DNA of 64,000 bases from Vampirovibrionales bacterium (GCA_025449835.1 JANWIO010000166.1:18967-82966), one strand, 5' to 3'; counted from the stretch's first letter, positions 3,984 to 41,674 are shown. Notes: generated from the letters alone by a model not told the origin. Program-made: numbers and translations.

Positions 3984-5204
3984 TTATCCTATCCTAGAAG
4001 CCAAGGTTTCACCCAACCAAGCTTCTAAACGCTCCAGATGAACCGAATGGTTGATGGTTGTTTTGTTCTCATTTTGCCATTTTGCAAAATTTAAAACAGG
4101 CAAATGGGAGCGATAAATAAATTCTTGTAATGTAGGTGACACCACTTCATCTATAATAACACCGGCTAAGGCTTGTTCATTATTAATATCCAATGAGGTC
4201 ACCACATGGTATCCCAAACGCTGGAGTACCATGGAAACAAACCCTTCTTCAACAGAGTTTTTCAGTAAAACTGCAACCCGATTCGAAGGAATATCCTCCG
4301 TTTCTTTGACATTCAGCGGTTTCGCCACCAAATCAAAGAAGACTTCCGCCTTTTGAATTTCGGTCGGTAAATCCACCAACAATTGAAACACATGATCTGG
4401 CAGCACTTTTTCAACGGCCAGTAATTGCATAAAATCCATTTTAACGTGGGGATCACCACTCGCACCTACACGAGCAATTTTAGCCACATTATCGGCCACT
4501 TGAATCAAGTTCACCATCCGACCTTCATGGCCATCTTGACCTTTTAAAACCGGTTGTTTTTGGGGATGGGAAGAATGATGATCTGCAACCGCCTGAATAA
4601 ATATATGAGGCAATTTCCAATGCTCACATAACTTGCCACCCAAAGCGGCATGATCAATGCCAAACGCTTCCCGCTCCAAGGAAATCAAAGATTTCTCACC
4701 CACCTCCGCTTTTTTAAGCAATTCAATATATTGCTCTGTGAAATATTCCATAAAAATGGCCCGCCCGATGTCATGAATTAGCCCGGATGTATAAGCCTCC
4801 TCAGGGTTTGGAATTCGAAATAGCGGGCTCAGAATCCTTGAAGAGCAAGCTACCCCTAAAGAATGTCGCCAAAAATCTTCTCGATTAAAAGAAACGTCCG
4901 GCACATTTTTATGAAAAAATTCAAAAACCGAAATCCCCAATGACAGATTTTTAACCCCTTGAAACCCCAAAATCATTACCGCCTGAGAAATGGTACTGAC
5001 GCGATGGGAAAGCCCATAAAAAGCTGAATTGGACACACGAAGCACTTTGGTGGTTAAAGCCTGATCACCGGATATGGTTTGGGTAATATCACGAATATCC
5101 GTATTGGGATCATCTGCCAACTGAAATAATCGCCCCACAGAAGAGGGTAAAGGAGGCAATGATTGTATTTTAAACAACACATCCCGAATAACTTTATTTT
5201 CCAT
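3984..5204 (-). CDS. HDOD-domain signalling protein with a C-terminal receiver-like region
   Basis: HDOD signature (TKVLRVSNSAFYGLSHRVSTISQAVMILGFQGVKNLSL). Lies 3 bp upstream of the HD-GYP gene and overlaps the upstream REC gene by 11 nt. Confidence 0.8.
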   Translation of the reverse strand: MENKVIRDVLFKIQSLPPLPSSVGRLFQLADDPNTDIRDITQTISGDQALTTKVLRVSNSAFYGLSHRVSTISQAVMILGFQGVKNLSLGISVFEFFHKNVPDVSFNREDFWRHSLGVACSSRILSPLFRIPNPEEAYTSGLIHDIGRAIFMEYFTEQYIELLKKAEVGEKSLISLEREAFGIDHAALGGKLCEHWKLPHIFIQAVADHHSSHPQKQPVLKGQDGHEGRMVNLIQVADNVAKIARVGASGDPHVKMDFMQLLAVEKVLPDHVFQLLVDLPTEIQKAEVFFDLVAKPLNVKETEDIPSNRVAVLLKNSVEEGFVSMVLQRLGYHVVTSLDINNEQALAGVIIDEVVSPTLQEFIYRSHLPVLNFAKWQNENKTTINHSVHLERLEAWLGETLASRIG

Positions 5205-14514: not shown

Positions 14515-14600
14515 GGAAGAAGAAAAGGATAACAAAGAGAAAAACAGGGAAATTTCAATTTTATAAAATTACAATTAATTGTTTAGAAACTACTTTGGCA

Positions 14601-14620
14601 CTATTTGCAGTTGCAAATAG
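14601..14620. promoter_or_regulatory. Inverted repeat CTATTTGCA-gt-TGCAAATAG, 40 bp upstream of the flagellin-1 start, overlapping a TTGGCAC sigma54-like half site
   Basis: Two 9-bp arms read directly from the sequence. Confidence 0.5.
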
Positions 14621-14659
14621 TACACGGAAGTGCTTTAGCGAGTTAAGGAGAACACGCAA

Positions 14660-15529
14660 GTGCCGATAGTTGTAAATACCAATATTGCATCTTTAATTGC
14701 ACAACAAAATTTATCAGTGAATACCAATAACGTTAATGGTTCACTGGAAAAATTATCCTCCGGCTATAAAATCAATCATGCCTCTGACGATCCAGCAGGA
14801 TTAAGCATCTCAGAAACACTTAATAGCCAGATTTCCGGGATCCAAACAGCTTTGCAAAACGCCCAAGAGGGAAACAGCATTTTGCAAGTTGCAGAAGGAA
14901 CTTTAAGTGTTATCGGTGATAACCTCCAACGGATTCGAGAGCTAACCGTTGAAGCTGCTAACGATACCAACAGTAGCACTCAGCGGGCAGCCCTTGCCAG
15001 TGAAATTAAGGCTCGCTTAAATGACAACCAACGCATGGTTCAAGCGGCACAATTTAATGGCATTAATCTGCTAACGGGATCAGCCGTCAGTGCTCGCCTT
15101 CAAATTGGACCCGATGCAAGCATTGCCGACAATACCATTAACATTGCCAGTGTCCTCGCCACGGCCACAGCAACAGCCATTGGTATTCTGGGAGCTGCCA
15201 CTTCCACAAAATGGGGAACTATCGGCAGCATTAACATTACCAATGGTAGCGTTGCCAGAAGCTTCTTAGGTGAGATAGATAAAGCTATTCAAGCCATCTC
15301 TTCAAGACGCACATTGATTGGTGCTTACCAAAACCAGTTAAGCAGCGCCATCTCCAATTTACAGTTGGGTTCACAGAACCTGACCTCCTCAGAATCCAAT
15401 ATCCGAGATGTGGATGTTGCTGCAGAAAGCGCTAAATTAACCCAATCTCAAATCTTACAACAGGCATCCGTTAGTATCCTGACACAGGCCAATCAAACCC
15501 CCTCAATGGTTCTTAAACTACTACAGTAA
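14660..15529 (+). CDS. fliC: Flagellin (copy 1 of 6, 289 aa, GTG start), the most divergent paralog
   Basis: Conserved flagellin D0/D1 termini (MPIVVNTNIASL... and ...LQQASVSILTQANQTP..LKLLQ). AAGGAG SD 9 nt upstream. Confidence 0.9.
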   Translation: MPIVVNTNIASLIAQQNLSVNTNNVNGSLEKLSSGYKINHASDDPAGLSISETLNSQISGIQTALQNAQEGNSILQVAEGTLSVIGDNLQRIRELTVEAANDTNSSTQRAALASEIKARLNDNQRMVQAAQFNGINLLTGSAVSARLQIGPDASIADNTINIASVLATATATAIGILGAATSTKWGTIGSINITNGSVARSFLGEIDKAIQAISSRRTLIGAYQNQLSSAISNLQLGSQNLTSSESNIRDVDVAAESAKLTQSQILQQASVSILTQANQTPSMVLKLLQ

Positions 15530-15634
15530 CCCTTACATAACCATAAGGAAAGCCCCATGAATACAACCCCCTAAGTTATACCCGCTCCCTCCCATGAACC
15601 TGGTCCATGCCCCAAATCATCACTGAACCAGACT

Positions 15635-16075
15635 CATGTGAGGACCTCCAAAGTTTTCACATGACCCCAGTATCTGCCCACATTAAACCTCAACATTAAC
15701 CCTTCGTGGATGGATACCCAACTCAATAACACCTGTAAAACGCTTCTGTGCATTAGCGTGGCGACCATCAAATTAAAAATAAAGATGCTGTCGACACCAG
15801 CTTCATGACTCAGATACCACTTTACAGGCTCAAAGAACCTCTTTCATGACTGAAAAGGATGAAAGCCTGGGCGCTAAAACGCTCCCGGGATGGGGTTCCC
15901 TACAATAAAATACCGAAACCCTTATATGTGCCTGATTCAGGGTGCCTTGGGCATCATTTTTTGAATCAGCCCCATGTGAGGATTCTTCGGACCTCTCACA
16001 TGACCCGATGTAAAACCGAGTTCGTGCCACTTGGCATGGATGTTTAAACCCAAACCGTTTGAACCGGCTTTACAT
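15635..16075 (+). repeat. Structured intergenic region with two copies of a CATGTGAGGA...CACATGACCC hairpin motif and further inverted repeats
   Basis: Copy A 15635-15667 and copy B 15973-16006 share 10-nt flanks that form 7-8 bp stems. Adjacent inverted repeats CTGATTCA/TGAATCAG (15933-15970) and GATGTAAA/TTTACATC (16007-16075). Confidence 0.5.
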
Positions 16076-16271
16076 CAAATTCATCAAGAATAAACCCCAT
16101 GTCTTATTTGGCATGAATGGATTAGAAATAAAGTTTTGTCTCTATTTCTACCCAGATCAAGCCTTTATAAGGCATTTTGAAAGAACCAACCTAACTCATA
16201 ATACACAACACGTTTGGAAAAACGCCACTTGACAAGGATGGAAAGTGAGAAAAAGCAAAAGGAGTTGAACT

Positions 16272-17114
16272 ATGCCACTCGTTATTAATACAAACGTAAA
16301 TTCATTAAATGCCCAACGGCTCTTGTCACAAAACACGATGAATCTGTCTAAAGATTTAGAGCAATTGGCCTCTGGTTATCGGATTAACCATGCCAGCGAT
16401 GATGCCGCAGGATTACAGATTTCTGAAAATTTTACTGCCCAAATCCGAGGCACTGAACAAGCCATTAACAATGCACAAGATGGCCTTAACCTCTTGTCTG
16501 TTGCAGAAGGTACCTTGAGCGTTGTGGCAAACAACCTGCAACGGATCCGGGAGCTCGCTGTGGAAGCTGCCAACGATGTGAACGGTTCAACCCAAAGATC
16601 TGCTATTAAGCAAGAAATTGATGCCCGAATCGCCGATATCAACCGAATGACCAAAGCAACACAATTTAACGGTGTCAATGTTCTTCAAAAGATCCCTAAT
16701 GTCAGCCTTAGACTACAGGTGGGTGCCAATGGTGTTGCATCACAAGACACCATCAATATCGCTTCTGCACTGGGAAGTGCAACCGCTACGGGACTTGGCC
16801 TTACAGCCACAGCCAATATGATTTCATCTAACAGTAATGCTCGGGCATTTTTGGCCAATGTAGATAGTGCTATGAATAACCTATCCAGCAGAAGAGCGGT
16901 AATCGGTTCATTCCAAAACCGATTACAAAGCGCTATTGATAACTTACAAATTGAAGATCAAAACTTCCAAGCTTCTGAATCTCAAATTAGAGACGTGAAT
17001 GTGGCCAAAGTTACGGCCGATCTTTCTAAAAACCAGATTTTACAACAAGCCTCTGTCAGCATCTTGGCGCAAGCAAATCAATTGCCGGCTCTGGCACTTA
17101 AATTAATCGGGTAA
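16272..17114 (+). CDS. fliC: Flagellin (copy 2 of 6, 280 aa)
   Basis: Flagellin N- and C-terminal helices. About 93% aa identity to copy 3 with many synonymous nucleotide differences. Confidence 0.9.
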   Translation: MPLVINTNVNSLNAQRLLSQNTMNLSKDLEQLASGYRINHASDDAAGLQISENFTAQIRGTEQAINNAQDGLNLLSVAEGTLSVVANNLQRIRELAVEAANDVNGSTQRSAIKQEIDARIADINRMTKATQFNGVNVLQKIPNVSLRLQVGANGVASQDTINIASALGSATATGLGLTATANMISSNSNARAFLANVDSAMNNLSSRRAVIGSFQNRLQSAIDNLQIEDQNFQASESQIRDVNVAKVTADLSKNQILQQASVSILAQANQLPALALKLIG

Positions 17115-17137
17115 GCCTGTTGTTTACCCATTTTTTA
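17109..17137 (+). terminator. Probable intrinsic terminator of flagellin 2
   Basis: GGGTAA-gcctgttgt-TTACCC followed by ATTTTTT; overlaps the stop codon. Confidence 0.55.
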
Positions 17138-17284
17138 TACCCAATCACTTACATAACTTAGAAAGGAGAAACAGATAAGACCTAAAATCACCTCATTTAC
17201 ATTACAGTACGTTACTTGTGTTTAACAAAAATACCTCATTATTAACAAGGATGGAAATAATAAGAAAGCAAAAGGAGTTGTACT

Positions 17285-18127
17285 ATGCCACTCGTTATTA
17301 ATACCAATGTCAATTCATTAAACGCTCAGCGACTCTTGTCGCAAAACACCATGAATCTCTCCAAAGACCTAGAGCAATTAGCCTCTGGTTATCGTATTAA
17401 CCATGCCGGTGATGACGCCGCAGGTCTCCAGATTTCTGAAAATTTTACTGCCCAAATCAAAGGGACAGAGCAAGCCATTAACAACGCACAGGATGGCCTT
17501 AACCTCTTGTCTGTTGCTGAAGGCACCCTAAGTGTTGTTCAGGATAACCTCCAGCGGATCCGCGAGCTAACTGTACAAGCGGCTAACGATGTTAACGGCT
17601 CCTCTCAAAGAACCGCTATTAAGCAAGAAATTGATGCCCGAATCGCCGACATCAACCGAATGACCAAAGCCACACAGTTTAACGGTGTCAATATTCTTAA
17701 AAGCATTGCAAATGTGAGTTTTCGCCTGCAAGTTGGTGCCAATGGTGTTGCATCCCAGGATACCATCAACATTGCATCAGCCTTGGGTAGTGCAACAGCC
17801 ACGGGGCTTGGATTAAAGGCAACGACCAATATGATTTCATCCAACAGCAATGCCCGTGCTTTTTTAGCCAATGTGGATAGTGCCATGAATAACCTATCCA
17901 GCAGAAGAGCGGTTATCGGTTCATTCCAAAACCGACTGCAAAGTGCCGTGAGTAACTTACAAATTGCAGATCAAAACTTCCAGGCCTCTGAATCTCAGAT
18001 CAGAGACGTTAATGTGGCCAAAGTTACTGCCGATCTCTCTAAAAACCAGATTCTGCAACAAGCTTCTGTCAGTATCTTGGCACAAGCAAACCAATTGCCG
18101 GCTTTGGCACTCAAACTTATCGGCTAA
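17285..18127 (+). CDS. fliC: Flagellin (copy 3 of 6, 280 aa)
   Basis: Flagellin termini. Leader shares the AAGGATGGAAA...AAGGAG motif with copy 2. Confidence 0.9.
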   Translation: MPLVINTNVNSLNAQRLLSQNTMNLSKDLEQLASGYRINHAGDDAAGLQISENFTAQIKGTEQAINNAQDGLNLLSVAEGTLSVVQDNLQRIRELTVQAANDVNGSSQRTAIKQEIDARIADINRMTKATQFNGVNILKSIANVSFRLQVGANGVASQDTINIASALGSATATGLGLKATTNMISSNSNARAFLANVDSAMNNLSSRRAVIGSFQNRLQSAVSNLQIADQNFQASESQIRDVNVAKVTADLSKNQILQQASVSILAQANQLPALALKLIG

Positions 18128-18317
18128 TTATCGAGCTCATTTGGCTTAAAACGCCTGTCGATAAATTTATTCTCACCTCATCAATGAGAAAAAAACAACA
18201 AAGGAGAATCTCCCTAATGACTTAAAACAATAATCCATCTGATTGAAACCTCTCACGTGTGGTGCAATCAGCCACTTACTTAAATTTGAATCAGGAAATA
18301 ACAGTAGGAGAAAAACT

Positions 18318-19157
18318 ATGCCACTGGTTATTAATACGAATACTAACTCATTAAACGCACAGCGGCTCTTGTCACAAAACACCATGAATCTCTCCAAAGA
18401 CTTAGAGCAGTTGGCCTCCGGTTATCGAATCAATCACGCATCGGACGACGCGGCAGGGCTACAAATCTCCCAGAATTTGCAGTCTCAATACCGTGGTATT
18501 GAGCAGGCCGTTCGAAACTCACAAGATGGACTTAACCTCTTGTCTGTTGCTGAAGGCACCTTGAGTGTTGTTCAAGATAACCTCCAGCGGATACGAGAAC
18601 TCGCTGTACAAGCAGCCAACGATGTTAACGGTACATCTCAAAGAACCGCTATTAAACAAGAGATAGATGCTCGAATTGCTGACATTAATCGAATGACCAA
18701 AGCCACGCAATTTAACGGTGTTAATATCCTTCAAAGCATCAAAGGCAGCTTCAATCTTGAAGTGGGTGCCAATGGTGCAGCATCCACAAATACCATTAAC
18801 ATTGCTTCAGCACTAGGTAGTGCAACAGCCACAGGGCTTGGACTAAAGGCAACCACCAATATGATTGCCGCCAACAGTAATGCTAGAGCCTTTTTAGGAA
18901 ATGTTGATTCAGCCATTGCAAATGTGTCAACAAGACGTGCAACCATTGGTTCATTCCAAAACCGGCTGCAAAGTGCTATTGCAAACTTACAAATTGCAGA
19001 TCAAAACTTCCAAGCTTCTGCGTCTCAAATTAGAGATGTGAATGTGGCTGCAGTCACTGCGGATCTGTCTCGAAATCAGATTCTGCAGCAGGCTTCCGTC
19101 AGCATTCTGTCTCAAGCAAATCAACTACCGGCCTTAGCACTCAAACTTATCGGATAA
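18318..19157 (+). CDS. fliC: Flagellin (copy 4 of 6, 279 aa); start corrected to ATG 18318
   Basis: MPLVINTN start preceded by a TAGGAG SD. The extra 25 codons of track ORF 18243 lack an RBS and break the paralog alignment. Confidence 0.9.
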   Translation: MPLVINTNTNSLNAQRLLSQNTMNLSKDLEQLASGYRINHASDDAAGLQISQNLQSQYRGIEQAVRNSQDGLNLLSVAEGTLSVVQDNLQRIRELAVQAANDVNGTSQRTAIKQEIDARIADINRMTKATQFNGVNILQSIKGSFNLEVGANGAASTNTINIASALGSATATGLGLKATTNMIAANSNARAFLGNVDSAIANVSTRRATIGSFQNRLQSAIANLQIADQNFQASASQIRDVNVAAVTADLSRNQILQQASVSILSQANQLPALALKLIG

Positions 19158-19315
19158 AAATATACACAAACAATCTTTAATAACAAAATAACCTGAAAGG
19201 AGGCTGATTATCCCGGAAAAATAGAACTCTTAGATTATCTAAATCCACACTTTACAAAACACAAACACTTTTTTTTGGAAGGAAAAGTGAAAAAACAACA
19301 TAAAGGAGTTAAATT

Positions 19316-20155
19316 ATGCCACTTGTTATTAATACAAACGTAAACTCGTTAAATGCACAGCGGCTCTTGTCACAAAACACCATGAATCTCTCCAAAGACT
19401 TAGAGCAGTTGGCCTCCGGTTATCGAATCAACCACGCATCTGACGACGCAGCCGGGCTACAAATCTCCCAGAATCTGCAGTCTCAATACCGTGGTGTCGA
19501 GCAGGCCGTTCGAAACTCACAAGACGGGTTAAACCTCTTGTCTGTTGCTGAAGGTACCCTGAGTGTCGTTCAAGATAACCTCCAGCGGATCAGAGAGCTT
19601 GCTGTACAGGCGGCCAACGATGTGAACGGTACATCTCAAAGAACTGCTATTAAGCAAGAGATGGATGCCCGGATTGCTGACATCAACCGAATGACCAAAG
19701 CAACGCAATTTAACGGTGTTAATATCCTTCAAAGCATCAAAGGAAGCTTTAACATTCAAGTTGGTGCCAATGGTGCAGCATCCACAAACTCCATTAACAT
19801 TGCGTCTGCACTGGGTAGCGCAACAGCCACAGGCCTTGGCTTAAAGGCAACCGCAAATATGATTGCCGCCAACAGTAATGCCAGATCCTTTTTATCCAAT
19901 ATCGATACAGCCATTGCAAACGTCTCAACAAGACGTGCAACCATTGGTTCGTTTCAAAACCGGCTACAAAGTGCTATTGCAAACCTACAAATTGCTGACC
20001 AAAACTACCAAGCTTCTGCATCTCAAATTCGAGATGTGAACGTGGCTTCAGTCACTGCGGATCTGTCTCGAAACCAGATTCTGCAGCAGGCTTCCGTCAG
20101 CATTCTGTCTCAAGCAAATCAACTACCGGCCTTAGCACTCAAACTCATTGGTTAA
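19316..20155 (+). CDS. fliC: Flagellin (copy 5 of 6, 279 aa)
   Basis: Near-identical to copy 4, including a ~78-nt identical tract near the 5' end. Confidence 0.9.
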   Translation: MPLVINTNVNSLNAQRLLSQNTMNLSKDLEQLASGYRINHASDDAAGLQISQNLQSQYRGVEQAVRNSQDGLNLLSVAEGTLSVVQDNLQRIRELAVQAANDVNGTSQRTAIKQEMDARIADINRMTKATQFNGVNILQSIKGSFNIQVGANGAASTNSINIASALGSATATGLGLKATANMIAANSNARSFLSNIDTAIANVSTRRATIGSFQNRLQSAIANLQIADQNYQASASQIRDVNVASVTADLSRNQILQQASVSILSQANQLPALALKLIG

Positions 20156-20180
20156 TCATCTATAACCAGTGCTTAAGCCT

Positions 20181-20212
20181 GCAGGAGACCCTTTTGGGGT
20201 CTCCTGTTTTTT
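20181..20212 (+). terminator. Strong rho-independent terminator after flagellin 5
   Basis: CAGGAGACCC-tttt-GGGGTCTCCTG followed by TTTTTT. Confidence 0.85.
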
Positions 20213-20501
20213 CACGCATTTCCATCTTCCTTCTTTACAACCCTTTGTTTTTAAAATTTAAACATAGATTGTAACAGATTGTTTCAATTTCCACTGAATG
20301 ATTTATGTTTCCGATGACCCTGTCGAAATCACATCAGGGACACCTCAAAAATGTTCCCACCCCAAGGGCACATCCCTGTAAAAGCACCTACCATAGAATT
20401 ATATGATGCAGCTTTAGGCTAACTCGGCTGGGTTAGAATGGCTTTTGCAGTGCGTTTCCTTAGGGTTCATGGATGAAATAATATTGTAAGGAGACAATAC
20501 T

Positions 20502-21341
20502 ATGTCACTAGTCGTGAATACAAACATTTCTTCTTTGAACGCTCAAAGAAACCTTGCTAATAACACAATGAGCCTTAACCGATCGTTAGAGCGGTTATCC
20601 TCCGGTTTACAGATTAACCATGCTTCTGATAACGCTGCAGGGTTACAAATTTCTCAAAATTTGCAAGCCCAAGTTAATGGTGTCAACCAAGCAGTTTCCA
20701 ATGCACAGGATGGCAACAATCTTCTGTCTGTTGCTGAGGGTACCTTGAGTGTTGTTCAAGATAACCTCCAACGGATTCGGGAATTGACTGTGCAAGCCGC
20801 CAACGATGTAAACGGTACATCTCAAAGAACTGCTATTAAGCAAGAGATCGATTCCCGGATTGCTGACATCAACCGAATGACCAAAGCGACCCAATTTAAT
20901 GGTATCAATATCCTTCAAAGCATCAAAGGAAGCTTTAACATTCAAGTTGGTGCCAATGGTGCAGCATCCACAAACTCCATTAACATTGCTTCAGCACTGG
21001 GTAGCGCAACAGCCACGGGGCTTGGGTTAAAAGCAACCACCAATATGGTTGCTGCAAATAGTAATGCTAGGGCCTTTTTGGCCAATGTGGATACGGCCAT
21101 TTCAGCTGTCTCAACCCGAAGAGCAACGATCGGTTCTTATCAAAACCGGTTACAAAGTGCTATCAGTAACTTACAGATTACGTCTCAAAATTTCGCTGCT
21201 TCTGAATCTCAAATCAGAGACGTGAATGTCGCTTCAGAAACGGCAAACTTAACCCGTTCTCAAATTCTGCAGCAAGCTTCTGTAAGCATCTTGGCACAAG
21301 CAAACCAATCATCAGCTCTGGCACTCAAACTCATCGGTTAG
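20502..21341 (+). CDS. fliC: Flagellin (copy 6 of 6, 279 aa), mosaic: divergent N-terminus, central block identical to copy 5
   Basis: MSLVVNTNISSLNAQR... N-terminus. A ~63-nt block (20927-20989) is identical to 19741-19803 of copy 5. Confidence 0.9.
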   Translation: MSLVVNTNISSLNAQRNLANNTMSLNRSLERLSSGLQINHASDNAAGLQISQNLQAQVNGVNQAVSNAQDGNNLLSVAEGTLSVVQDNLQRIRELTVQAANDVNGTSQRTAIKQEIDSRIADINRMTKATQFNGINILQSIKGSFNIQVGANGAASTNSINIASALGSATATGLGLKATTNMVAANSNARAFLANVDTAISAVSTRRATIGSYQNRLQSAISNLQITSQNFAASESQIRDVNVASETANLTRSQILQQASVSILAQANQSSALALKLIG

Positions 21342-21707
21342 TACTCGTCGCTTAAAAAACAATCGAGTATTACCAACCCGTAGCTGAGTGGAGATCCTGA
21401 GATGGTTGAACCAAAACCCAAGCATCGGGATCTCTCCTCCCCTCCTCTACCTGAAGATCATGTCCAACCGACTGATATTCAGCTAACCTTAGAGGCTTCA
21501 ACCCAACGAGATATTCAATACCTTAACCAACTCAGTGCATTGATATCTCTTTACCTGGTAGACCAAGCCTGTGCATTTATCCGAGCCGGATAACACCAAT
21601 CTAAGGTCTTAAAATAGACGAGGAGACTAGAGAAACCGAGTCATAAAACAAAGAAGCACTTAGACAAATACGTCTAGGTGCTTCTGATTTGTTTAAACCA
21701 ACACAGC

Positions 21708-22184
21708 TTACACGCTCATATGCGGGTCATCTTCCACTTCCATAATGGCGGGGTCTAACGGACGGTTTTTATAGTACACCACGGTAATCTCAGTTTGTGG
21801 AGACACATCTTTTTGATAGGTTTCAGCCAAAAATTGAATGACCTGAGCCGCTGTTTTGAGCCCCTGCTTTTGCGCTTCATAATCTGAGTCGTCCAGCTCT
21901 TGAATCAAACAGCATTTGAGATCACCTTGAATCACCCCCTTACGAATAATTTTGTGATTCACCCGGATATCAACCTCTTCGCCATCCACCCAGTAGTGAT
22001 TGTCATAATATAAACGTCCCAGGCGAAATGCCACACGAAGCTGATCAATGGATTCGTTTATCACGTCTTCCCGAAACTGAGCTGGCCAATTAATTGCTTT
22101 TGACACCTTGTTTACTCCTCCACATCCATAGATGATTCTATTGTAACGGCTCCGTGACAAGCAGTAACAATTTTTATCAAACAC
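21708..22184 (-). CDS. Hypothetical protein (158 aa) immediately downstream of the flagellin array
   Basis: Long ORF with no recognisable motifs. Confidence 0.35.
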   Translation of the reverse strand: MFDKNCYCLSRSRYNRIIYGCGGVNKVSKAINWPAQFREDVINESIDQLRVAFRLGRLYYDNHYWVDGEEVDIRVNHKIIRKGVIQGDLKCCLIQELDDSDYEAQKQGLKTAAQVIQFLAETYQKDVSPQTEITVVYYKNRPLDPAIMEVEDDPHMSV

Positions 22185-22338: not shown

Positions 22339-22620
22339 ATGCCAGAAAGTGCTGGCAAAAAACGTGTTTCAAAATCAAAACAGAAAAAACCAACAAATTC
22401 TGATTTGCAAGGGGTTTTAGGGCGCCAAAAAGCCCTCTCTCGGGCAAAAGCCTTACGGCGAATGACCCAGATTCTAACGCTGGATAACATTATTTGTGAT
22501 GAGGTCGTTCAGTTGATGACGTTCTTTGATTTCCATATTGATGAGCTCACAGAAGCCGGTGTGCCCTATGAAGTGGTTCGGGCTCTGGAAAAGCGCTACC
22601 CATTACTCCTTCATGAGTAA
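22339..22620 (+). CDS. Hypothetical small basic protein (93 aa)
   Basis: The ORF is followed by a clean intrinsic terminator at 22665-22697. Confidence 0.45.
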   Translation: MPESAGKKRVSKSKQKKPTNSDLQGVLGRQKALSRAKALRRMTQILTLDNIICDEVVQLMTFFDFHIDELTEAGVPYEVVRALEKRYPLLLHE

Positions 22621-35281: not shown

Positions 35282-35653
35282 ATGGTTGATGGAATTTCAG
35301 GATCTCACAATAACGGGATTTCAGAATTAAAATCAGGTTTAATTAACCAGAATCAACAAGTTGAGCAGACCAATCAAGAGTCTTCTAATAGCCAACAGTC
35401 TGGTAACGTACTGAATTTGTTTGATCAGGCTGAAATTTCCAGCGATGCCAAAACCCGTTTTCAATCTGAAAAAGAGTTGATGAAATATTCCACCACCGCT
35501 TTTCGCCAAGATGAAGCTTTTAATACCGATAAAGTGAGTCAATTTAAATCCATGTTAGACTCTGGGCGGATTAATGACTACTTAAGTAGCCTCAACCCCA
35601 ATGATTTGGCCAATAACATTTTAAACAGCCCAGCAGCGGCACTGCTTAAATAA
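35282..35653 (+). CDS. flgM: Putative anti-sigma-28 factor FlgM
   Basis: Gln/Ser-rich disordered N-terminus. C-terminal FlgM-like helix region (KVSQFKSMLDSGRINDYLSSLNPNDLANNIL). Intrinsic terminator follows. Confidence 0.55.
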   Translation: MVDGISGSHNNGISELKSGLINQNQQVEQTNQESSNSQQSGNVLNLFDQAEISSDAKTRFQSEKELMKYSTTAFRQDEAFNTDKVSQFKSMLDSGRINDYLSSLNPNDLANNILNSPAAALLK

Positions 35654-35971: not shown

Positions 35972-36463
35972 ATGATAAATCCGCTTCGATTTGGGGCTAT
36001 CACCGTTGCTCGCATGAAAAACGCGCCGCGTTCTTTTGATCGGGCAATTACGCAGCAAGCCGTGGCAAAATTTCAAGAAGGCATTAATGCCCACCTAAAA
36101 CAGTTAGAAACACAGCATCAAGGGGAAGCAGAATATTATGCAGCAGTTATTCCCTCTCTGTGGTGGGATCAGATGCTCATTGTGGATGGCCCCGAGTTTG
36201 ATCAGTTTGGTCGTGACAGCTTAAGACGACAACAACGAAACTTAAAAGCCATGGAGACCATTGCAAAAACCCAAACCCGTAATCCTCTCCGTTTTGATAA
36301 GAGAGAAGATTTTGAAACGGCTCCCACGCCTCAAATCTACAATTGGTGCGATGCCTATGCCTTAAACATCCCCAATATCAACGAAACAGCAACGGGGCTG
36401 GATCGATTTCTTGTCTCTGAATATTTAGGAAAAGCAACCCAGTATCTAGATATTGAAGTGTAA
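35972..36463 (+). CDS. Hypothetical protein (163 aa)
   Basis: ORF only; no recognisable motif. Confidence 0.4.
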   Translation: MINPLRFGAITVARMKNAPRSFDRAITQQAVAKFQEGINAHLKQLETQHQGEAEYYAAVIPSLWWDQMLIVDGPEFDQFGRDSLRRQQRNLKAMETIAKTQTRNPLRFDKREDFETAPTPQIYNWCDAYALNIPNINETATGLDRFLVSEYLGKATQYLDIEV

Positions 36464-40051: not shown

Positions 40052-41674
40052 ATGGCCCCAAAAGGTCTAAAACAAGATTTCTCCAGATACAAAAAAGCGC
40101 CCTGTAAAAATATCCTCCAATGCCATTATTTCCATTATAATGGTGTGCAGGGTACTGCTAGAAAGATAAAACGATTGTCTTCACCAAATCAAACTGATAA
40201 TAAGGTTCTTCTCATCAGCACACAAAAGAGCCTGATTCAAAAAATATCGGCCCTGATGACCTCTGATTTTCAAGAGTTGGCTCTGGAAATTGCTGAAGCA
40301 GGGAGCAATGGCCTCACTCAAATTTATCATCACCCCCCTCGCTTGATTATTGTGGATAGCACTTTGCCCGATATCAGCGGATTGCAGATTTGTCGGGTTT
40401 TAAAGCATGATCCAGCCCTCCGCAAGCTACCCCTCATGCTTATTACCAAAGCCTTAAAAAAAGAATATGACAGATTGGGTGAACTGACCCTGATTGCAGA
40501 CGCCTTTTTGGAAGAGAAAAAAATCAACACGGCTTTTTGTACGGAAATCAAAATGCTCCTGAACCTGTTTAAGGGACTTGATGCTTCAGAACAACAACAA
40601 ATTCGACTCCTGCAACAAGACGCCGTACAGGTTGAACCCTTAAATCGGTTGGTTCAGCTCCTTGATCAATCCATTACAGAAACCACTTTAATGAATGCCT
40701 TCCAAAAGCTTTTCGACCTCGCCCCCTCAAAAAATATTCTGCATCATATGCTTTTTAGCCTCATGGAAACTGTTTTGGATTACGACGCAGCTGGGATTTT
40801 CTTTAACGATAAAACACGGGATACCCGTTTAATCACGTATCATCTGACCGATCAGGTGGCAATGAAAGATCAACAACTCCAAGAGTGGACAGACCAGGTT
40901 TTTGAGGAGCTCAAAAAGCAATCAAACGATCCTGCTCTGGAAATTCGTCCCTATCGCTATGAAACCATCTCTTCCAACATTTCTCCCGATACACCTGTAA
41001 AAACATCTAGCCTCAAACATCATTATCTTTACCCCTTTTTCATCGAAAACACCCTTGTTGGCGCCGTTGTCTTCTTAAATAAACAAAAAGTCAATTACGA
41101 TATCATCTTTCCCTTTTCTTTGCTGCTCCAGGAAATAAGCACTTTAATGCGGCTAAGGCATTACTATACAGAAGCGGAGATGCTCTCTATCTCCGACCCG
41201 TTAACAGGACTTTATACACACCAGCATTTTAGCTGGTCTCTTGATCGGGAGGTTCGCCAATCCAAACGGCATCAAACGCCCCTCACCCTGGTGATGATCA
41301 GCATCAATGATTTCCGGGAATTAAATACCCAGTGGGGTCATGCAATGGGAGATGAAGCGGTTAAGACCTTAGCACAACATGTGCAACAGAATGTTAGAAG
41401 CATTGACTACCTAGCACGTGCAGGAGGACGCAGCATTTTGGGGCTGTTCCCGAATACCTCTGCAAAAGATACCATGCATGCCCTCAAACGAATCCAAAAG
41501 TGGGTTTCAAGCAATCCGCTGACCTGGAAAGATTCAAAAATCTCTTTCAATTTAAGTATTGGCCTTGTAGAACTCAATGATTCCATCAATAACGCTTCAG
41601 AATTTATTGCCGCTGCAGAATCTGCAGTGGAGAATGCACGACAAAAAGGGGATAATATCGTTAAACACGTTTAG
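40052..41674 (+). CDS. Pseudo-receiver plus degenerate GGDEF protein (GGRSI in place of GGEEF, RxxD I-site retained); likely a c-di-GMP receptor rather than a cyclase
   Basis: Receiver-like region lacks the N-terminal acidic pair (KVLLISTQKS). GGDEF fold (DPLTGLYTHQHF...GHAMGDEAV...RSIDYLARAGGRSILGLFP). Confidence 0.75.
   Translation: MAPKGLKQDFSRYKKAPCKNILQCHYFHYNGVQGTARKIKRLSSPNQTDNKVLLISTQKSLIQKISALMTSDFQELALEIAEAGSNGLTQIYHHPPRLIIVDSTLPDISGLQICRVLKHDPALRKLPLMLITKALKKEYDRLGELTLIADAFLEEKKINTAFCTEIKMLLNLFKGLDASEQQQIRLLQQDAVQVEPLNRLVQLLDQSITETTLMNAFQKLFDLAPSKNILHHMLFSLMETVLDYDAAGIFFNDKTRDTRLITYHLTDQVAMKDQQLQEWTDQVFEELKKQSNDPALEIRPYRYETISSNISPDTPVKTSSLKHHYLYPFFIENTLVGAVVFLNKQKVNYDIIFPFSLLLQEISTLMRLRHYYTEAEMLSISDPLTGLYTHQHFSWSLDREVRQSKRHQTPLTLVMISINDFRELNTQWGHAMGDEAVKTLAQHVQQNVRSIDYLARAGGRSILGLFPNTSAKDTMHALKRIQKWVSSNPLTWKDSKISFNLSIGLVELNDSINNASEFIAAAESAVENARQKGDNIVKHV

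Follow-up and report, generated by a model that had tools for sequence, protein, structure and literature searches.

A tandem array of six short flagellin genes in a Vampirovibrionales bacterium and its likely history of class divergence, amplification, and exchange of gene centres

The window analyzed here is a 64,000-nucleotide (nt) stretch of DNA from a Vampirovibrionales bacterium (GCA_025449835.1 JANWIO010000166.1:18967-82966), and its main subject is an array of flagellin genes at positions 14660-21341 of the plus strand. ORF calling located six co-oriented flagellin open reading frames (ORFs), all intact, which are named f1 to f6 (Table 1). The f4 start is ATG 18318 by homology, whereas ORF calling alone had put it at an in-frame TTG at 18243. 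An AGGAG-type Shine-Dalgarno (SD) site lies 6-9 nt upstream of each of the six starts. The spacers from f1 to f6 are 742, 170, 190, 158, and 346 base pairs (bp) long, the value of 190 bp applying to the f4 start at 18318, and the start-to-start spacings in a repeat search are 1013, 1033, 998, and 1186 nt.

Flagellin_N (PF00669) is present in all six genes with E-values of 4e-34 to 1.4e-38, above the curated cut-off, and Flagellin_C (PF00700) in all six with E-values of 1.8e-19 to 1.9e-23; no third Pfam family is found. The N-terminal match ends at residue 141 and the C-terminal match starts at residues 193-204, leaving a gap of only ~50 residues in the six proteins. Residues 3-278 of f5 align with solved flagellins of 270-286 amino acids (aa) (9hpz, 9lah, 9oxk, 6t17, and 9pim). 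Judged from these matches, the six genes are members of the bacterial flagellin family, of a short, D0/D1-only type without a D2/D3 insertion. An earlier note on this DNA had described six co-oriented flagellins of 279-289 aa, each with its own SD site and separated by spacers of 158-742 bp, and had placed them at the minimal D0/D1 size. ORFs, Pfam matches, and SD sites agree on the gene set, and the short interdomain gap together with the end-to-end match to solved structures bears out the size. The rest of the window contains no further flagellin fragments detectable by tblastn; a weak flagellin-like match at 40816-40959 belongs to a GGDEF response regulator and not to a hook-associated protein. 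Rfam and tRNA scans of the window returned no matches. Residues ~89-101 of all copies (f1 14930-14970, f2 16540-16580, and the equivalents in f3-f6) read LQRIREL(A/T)V(Q/E)AAN, which we take to resemble the segment of Salmonella FliC that TLR5 recognizes (cf. Figure 7 of PMC3787301).

By BLASTP, the closest flagellins from outside the locus reach at most 68% identity, and those named among the matches listed come from Melainabacteria, Vampirovibrionales, and 'Cyanobacteria bacterium UBA...'. The window opens with a fragment of Mfd that shares 73% identity with a protein of the predatory bacterium Vampirovibrio sp. and ~60% with proteins of Obscuribacterales. These nearest flagellin and Mfd homologs, from Melainabacteria, Vampirovibrio, and Obscuribacterales, place the window within the Vampirovibrionia (Melainabacteria), which are non-photosynthetic and sister to Cyanobacteria. 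Vampirovibrionia are flagellated, and the presence of more than one flagellin copy was already known (PMC3787301). The array was compared with four loci, L001, L002 (GCA_041697335.1), L003, and L004, whose copies are named L1_1-5, L2_1-3, and L3_1. L001 carries five tandem flagellins on a 6.7-kilobase (kb) contig, and L003 and L004 carry one each. L002 is colinear with the window on both flanks of the array, where the encoded proteins are 57-83% identical, and its array consists of three flagellins only: a 289-aa ortholog of f1, followed by two 280-aa genes. The 289-aa gene (L2_1) shares 64% amino-acid identity and the same leader type with f1.

Amino-acid identity between f1 and f2-f6 is ~57%, while f2-f6 are mutually 75-95% identical and at most 71% identical to any copy of L001-L003. 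L001 and L002 behave likewise, their copies being more alike within a genome than between genomes. Three mRNA leader types are common across genomes: GTTAAGGAGAACACGC in f1 and L2_1; AAAGGAGTT, termed type A, in f2, f3, f5, L1_1-3, and L2_2; and GTAAGGAGAC, termed type B, in f6, L1_4, L1_5, L2_3, and L3_1. The f2 leader ends in AAAAGGAGTTGAACT, an ending it shares with the type A genes of L001 and L002. The f4 leader, TAGGAGAAAAACT, lacks the type A motif; f4 itself is assigned to type A on the 95% identity of its coding sequence with that of f5. All eight f6 residues that are common only to foreign type B copies lie at the termini, and 16 of the 18 that are common only to f2-f5 lie in the middle (middle versus termini, Fisher p = 2.9e-5).

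A further marker accompanies the type B genes. An ORF of 61-64 aa lies directly 3' of every type B flagellin and of no other, in four genomes (f6, L1_4, L1_5, L2_3, and L3_1), with copies at 4786-4971 and 6203-6382 in L001, 12109-12303 in L002, and 10928-11113 in L003. In L001, two type B genes are matched by two small ORFs, the ORF having been duplicated along with the gene. The encoded protein ends in the C-terminal motif I..LN..S....L..LDQ...L.R; it has no match in Pfam or NCBIfam, and a phmmer search of 1.84 billion representative proteins returned only the self-match. We distinguish three putatively old flagellin classes, represented by f1, by type A (f2-f5), and by type B (f6). The leader types, the linked small ORF, and the three-gene state of L002 indicate that the ancestral locus probably held f1, one type A gene, and one type B gene, and that type A then probably expanded from one to four copies in this lineage. 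The likely mechanism of this tandem amplification would be unequal recombination between repeats.

Superimposed on the classes is a mosaic structure within the genes. The DNA identity of f6 to f2-f5 is 58-71% in the first ~200 nt and mostly ~70-76% in the last ~250 nt; between these ends, its identity to f4 and f5 reaches 83-98%. The central f5/f6 tract (Table 1) includes a 63-nt block reported in the earlier note, which is exactly identical in the two genes (19741-19803 and 20927-20989). Over alignment columns 300-480, the raw proportion of synonymous differences (pS) separating f5 from f6 is 0.10-0.15, compared with 0.7-0.85 at the ends. Where both genes encode the same amino acid, 65 of 75 codons are identical inside the tract versus 71 of 152 outside it (p = 4e-9, with boundaries set post hoc). 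For the f5-f6 pair, a GENECONV-like permutation test is significant both with all polymorphic sites (p <= 3e-4) and with silent sites (p = 1e-3), and triplet tests identify f6, f5, and f3 as mosaics with p = 2e-5 to 5e-4, including short f4-like patches in f3. The likely donor of the f6 tract is f5, because f4 resembles f5 over the whole gene.

Neighbour-joining trees with bootstrap, built separately for gene ends and middle, conflict along the gene. The clade {f2-f5} excluding f6 has 100% support at the ends and 0% in the middle, and the clade {f4,f5,f6} has 0% and 100%, respectively. Support for {f6,L1_4,L1_5} falls from 47% at the ends to 0% in the middle, and support for {L1_3,L1_4,L1_5} rises from 2% to 89%. 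Central homogenisation is thus also found in L001, where it involves type A L1_3 and type B L1_5 (p = 9e-5). The array contains discrete exchanged tracts with conflicting phylogenies along the gene. Gene conversion among paralogs on top of older divergence, as proposed in the earlier note, agrees for f6 versus f5 and f4 with the GENECONV-like, triplet, and codon tests and with the conflict between end and middle trees.

The remaining pairs differ in what they contribute. Copies f2 and f3 share 93.6% protein and 84.5% DNA identity, and their synonymous divergence (dS) of 0.91, with a ratio of nonsynonymous to synonymous divergence (dN/dS) of 0.05, upholds the suggestion of an old duplication under purifying selection. 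Copies f4 and f5 are 95.3% identical in protein and 90.6% in DNA, with a dS of 0.40. The identical f4/f5 tract of ~78 nt that the note had described does begin at 18357; its length is 77 nt, and the f5 coordinates were 13 nt off, the true ones being 19355-19431. A second identical tract of 71 nt lies at the 3' ends of the two genes (19077-19147 and 20075-20145). As signs of conversion these tracts had to be given up: pairwise p-values of 0.005-0.02 are lost on correction for 10 pairs. The 77-nt tract is not independent evidence, given that f4 and f5 share 90.6% identity along their entire length and that this tract falls within the most conserved N-terminal segment.

Table 1. Positions of the flagellin genes, shared tracts, leader and hairpin features, and the linked small ORF, numbered from the first letter of the window
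Feature	Position	Strand	Description
f1 leader	14595-14659	+	10-bp inverted repeat, then hairpin CAC-GGAA-GUG (GGA in loop), then SD AAGGAG
f1	14660-15529	+	GTG start, 289 aa; divergent class with 10-residue insertion; Pfam Flagellin_N/C
Hairpin CAUGUGAGG...CACAUG, first copy	15634-15664	+	742-bp f1-f2 spacer; -15 kcal/mol, z = -3.0
Hairpin with same CAUGUGAGG arm, second copy	15973-16002	+	f1-f2 spacer; z = -1.3 only
f2	16272-17114	+	280 aa, type A; Pfam Flagellin_N/C
Weak terminator-like hairpin and T-run	17109-17129	+	Overlaps the f2 stop codon
f3	17285-18127	+	280 aa, type A; nearest to f2 except in f4-like patches at ~17518-17600 and ~17760-17825
f4	18318-19157	+	279 aa, type A; Pfam Flagellin_N/C
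f4/f5 identical tract	18357-18433 = 19355-19431	+	77 nt; weak as evidence of conversion
f5	19316-20155	+	279 aa, type A; 90.6% nt identity with f4
f5 central tract, common to f6	19630-19852	+	210/223 nt identical to f6 20816-21038
Strong intrinsic terminator after f5	20181-20207	+	12-bp stem and T-run; -24.4 kcal/mol, z = -5.3
f6	20502-21341	+	279 aa, type B; class-specific ends, f5-like centre
f6 tract, probably converted	20816-21038	+	aa ~105-180; 94% identical to f5, versus 69% upstream and 73% downstream
Small ORF	21402-21593	+	63 aa, conserved, 3' of f6; without known family
Terminator-like hairpin	21652-21685	+	Closes the f6 and small-ORF unit

The leaders of the six genes (f1 in Table 1; f2-f6 at 16207-16271, 17220-17284, 18253-18317, 19251-19315, and 20437-20501) have a common arrangement: besides the GGA of the SD site, each of the six carries another GGA ~35 nt ahead of the start. 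The upstream GGA falls in the loop of a predicted minimum-free-energy hairpin in f1, f2, f3, and f5 of the window. Across the window, L001, and L002, 10 of 15 flagellin leaders place it in a predicted hairpin loop, versus 0 of 46 other ORFs, and the stems of these hairpins differ in sequence between leaders. By analogy, the flagellin mRNAs may be separately controlled at translation, in a CsrA-like manner, through the GGA hairpin and the SD GGA; we offer this as a lead only. In the f1 leader, a 37-nt stretch is 84% conserved with the leader in L002. The motif TTGGCACTATTTGCA upstream of f1 was considered as a sigma-54 site and rejected: its GG-to-GC spacing is two bases short, and it forms one arm of the 10-bp inverted repeat. 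A sigma-70 promoter scan found sites no more numerous than in shuffled sequence. The predicted terminator positions suggest the transcription units f1, f2, f3-f5, and f6 with the small ORF. The CAUGUGAGG hairpin of the f1-f2 spacer has a counterpart at 9304-9332 of L002, at the same offset 3' of the f1 ortholog, and the motif does not recur as a dispersed repeat in the rest of the window.

Other ORFs of the window were noted in passing. Between the array and ABC transporter genes lie an ORF of 158 aa (21708-22184, minus strand) and one of 93 aa (22339-22620, plus strand), neither with a family match; L002 has ORFs in both positions, and similarity is confirmed for the 158-aa ORF only (62% amino-acid identity). 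A 123-aa ORF at 35282-35653 (plus strand) matches FlgM, the anti-sigma-28 factor, below threshold in both Pfam (20.6 bits, cut-off 25) and NCBIfam (23.8, cut-off 40.75). It is followed by an ORF of 163 aa (35972-36463) that matches no family and could encode a FlgN-like chaperone.

We consider it likely that this Vampirovibrionia flagellin locus developed from three old classes, through tandem amplification of type A and later conversion of gene centres from neighbour to neighbour. Homologous recombination between neighbours would have moved internal tracts and left the gene ends undisturbed. The clearest event would be the copying of ~220 nt or more from f5 to f6, with smaller f4-like patches in f3, and the outcome would be concerted evolution that left the protein centre near-uniform across copies and the termini and mRNA leaders class-specific. 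Internal tracts swapped between neighbours, with two breakpoints, are the signature of gene conversion after amplification by unequal exchange. Some observations weigh against this history. The segment boundaries used in the Fisher tests were set with the data already in view. The end-region clade {f6,L1_4,L1_5} has just 47% bootstrap support, so the case for an A/B split that predates the divergence of the species is carried mostly by short motifs in the leaders, by the linked small ORF, and by a few residues. L2_2 and L2_3 yielded no discrete tract. The array is a repeat region in a probably metagenome-assembled contig, taken here as assembled. A search for the sigma-28 pattern TAAA-N15-GCCGATAA with 1+2 mismatches found no convincing site in the 200 nt that precede any copy. 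Finally, tblastn with two CsrA queries found nothing credible for csrA in the 64-kb window or in L001-L004 (fliW was not searched for).

Birth-and-death evolution would read the same array differently, with f2-f6 as recent duplications in this lineage and the mosaic as the product of uneven constraint along the gene, without conversion. It accommodates the fact that f2-f6 are nearer to each other than to any foreign copy, and the N-terminal segment is so strongly conserved that long stretches of identity, the f4/f5 77-mer among them, are unsurprising. Protein constraint, however, cannot give a roughly six-fold fall in the proportion of synonymous differences within the f5/f6 tract, nor does it fit tree support that flips from 0% to 100% between ends and middle, or a leader type and linked small ORF that f6 has in common with the last flagellin of three other genomes. 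We therefore hold this explanation to be very unlikely. Another reading is that the mosaic came from imported DNA of other strains, or from single unequal crossovers that left hybrid genes, and not from non-reciprocal conversion within the array. Unequal crossover is indeed the likely route of the change from three to six copies, and a near-identical foreign allele would be indistinguishable from an intragenomic donor in this analysis. Set against this, a 94-100% identical donor lies 1.2 kb away in the same array, and the divergence of f6 on both sides of the tract implies two breakpoints, as in a conversion patch or double exchange and not in one crossover, which makes this origin quite improbable.

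The array or its identical tracts might also be artefacts of assembly, in which repeats or strain variants were mis-joined or collapsed in a short-read metagenome. The nearest matches, among those listed, are nearly all metagenome-derived, the source contig appears as one 83-kb NCBI record, and the repeats of 63-77 nt are about as long as common assembler k-mers. Yet the copies are 10-28% different in DNA, the spacers are unique, and all six ORFs are intact. An assembler would not be expected to make diverged genes identical, and a wrong path through the shared 77-mer would presumably delete or loop out a copy instead of keeping colinear order. Independent assemblies contain like arrays in the same class order, with five copies in L001 and three in L002. 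Such an artefact appears extremely unlikely, and amplification of type A followed by conversion of gene centres remains the history that we favor.

That history bears on how the proteins may be used. Aligned with known flagellins, the exchanged centre would correspond to the second D1 helix, the beta-hairpin, and the short loop found in place of D2/D3, and would form the exposed surface in a D0/D1-only filament, whereas the class-specific ends would carry the determinants of export, chaperone binding, and polymerisation. The most likely use of the six products, by analogy with Caulobacter, Bdellovibrio, Vibrio, and Shewanella, would be co-assembly into one composite filament, in which f1 may have a specialised role. 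In a minimal flagellin of this kind, the exposed centre would be free to homogenise while termini and leaders stay class-specific. A bolder proposal, to which we give only limited credence, is that the locus is a Vampirovibrionia-specific module, consisting of a first flagellin that is divergent, a type A that can be amplified, and a type B invariably coupled to an undescribed ~62-aa protein, with conversion confined to the surface-forming centre and the small ORF encoding a new flagellar accessory or regulatory factor. If so, the filament surface would stay uniform, and the class termini and GGA-hairpin leaders would keep export and translation control separate. The small ORF and the leader hairpin are, in any case, candidate flagellar regulators.

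The locus offers a clean, statistically well-supported case of tandem amplification combined with probable gene conversion in a structural gene family. Vampirovibrionia flagella are known from genomes only, and the array adds a case in these non-photosynthetic relatives of Cyanobacteria. The current view of flagellin evolution is unchanged, since multi-flagellin arrays are common and concerted evolution is documented. In a survey of 83 loci, fetched with flagellin queries from the matches listed, 54 have at least two flagellin matches in a span of no more than 21 kb, and ten loci have at least five. Loci with six flagellins occur in Magnetococcales, Myxococcota, Kushneria, and Rheinheimera, and one metagenome-assembled genome (MAG) has ten. 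In the locus L008 (CAZFBA010000002.1, 2-11665), ten short flagellins lie in tandem, 53% identical to f5 and near the top among the matches listed; its MAG bears the taxonomic label 'uncultured Gammaproteobacteria', which may be wrong. Approximately half of flagellated species carry more than one flagellin gene (PMC6299084).

Several known systems share parts of this organization. Caulobacter crescentus has six flagellins (PMC10369909, PMC7591256), as does Bdellovibrio bacteriovorus with fliC1-6 (PMC2791853), and composite filaments of multiple flagellins are known in Caulobacter, Bdellovibrio, Vibrio, and Shewanella (PMC10369909, PMC2791853, PMC6299084). As in the array, the Caulobacter and Bdellovibrio flagellins are six in number and short (~273-285 aa), and their roles are partly redundant; one of the Caulobacter paralogs has a regulatory role, which may offer an analogy for the divergent f1. 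Their genes are distributed over two or more loci, in contrast to the single array described here. The proposed leader control resembles the Hag-FliW-CsrA system, which regulates translation of flagellin mRNA in Bacillus subtilis (PMC6529632) and Campylobacter (PMC4894983): both have two leader GGA sites, one in an upstream hairpin loop and one overlapping the SD site. The likeness in our case is one of motif and predicted fold, and no csrA was found in the window (with fliW not searched for).

For the exchange of gene centres, the closest parallels are cases of concerted evolution. Concerted evolution of Campylobacter flaA/flaB has been reported (Meinersmann & Hiett 2000, Harrington 1997, and Wassenaar 1995, as cited in PMC5126078), and as in the present array, adjacent co-oriented paralogs are kept similar by intragenomic recombination and each is separately regulated. 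Campylobacter differs in having two long, glycosylated flagellins with D2/D3 domains, driven by sigma-28 and sigma-54 promoters, whereas the array has six short D0/D1-only genes in three classes, with homogenisation confined to the gene centre. Long-lasting, order-wide concerted evolution of fla has been described in Alteromonadales (PMC6053082), and the Alteromonas loci that we fetched hold three tandem flagellin copies. There, too, paralogs within a genome are more alike than orthologs between genomes over long spans. The array is a well-documented further case of published flagellin concerted evolution, less unusual than the earlier note implied; Alteromonadales belong to another phylum and display the pattern across an order, whereas here the tracts and the class markers are resolved within one locus.

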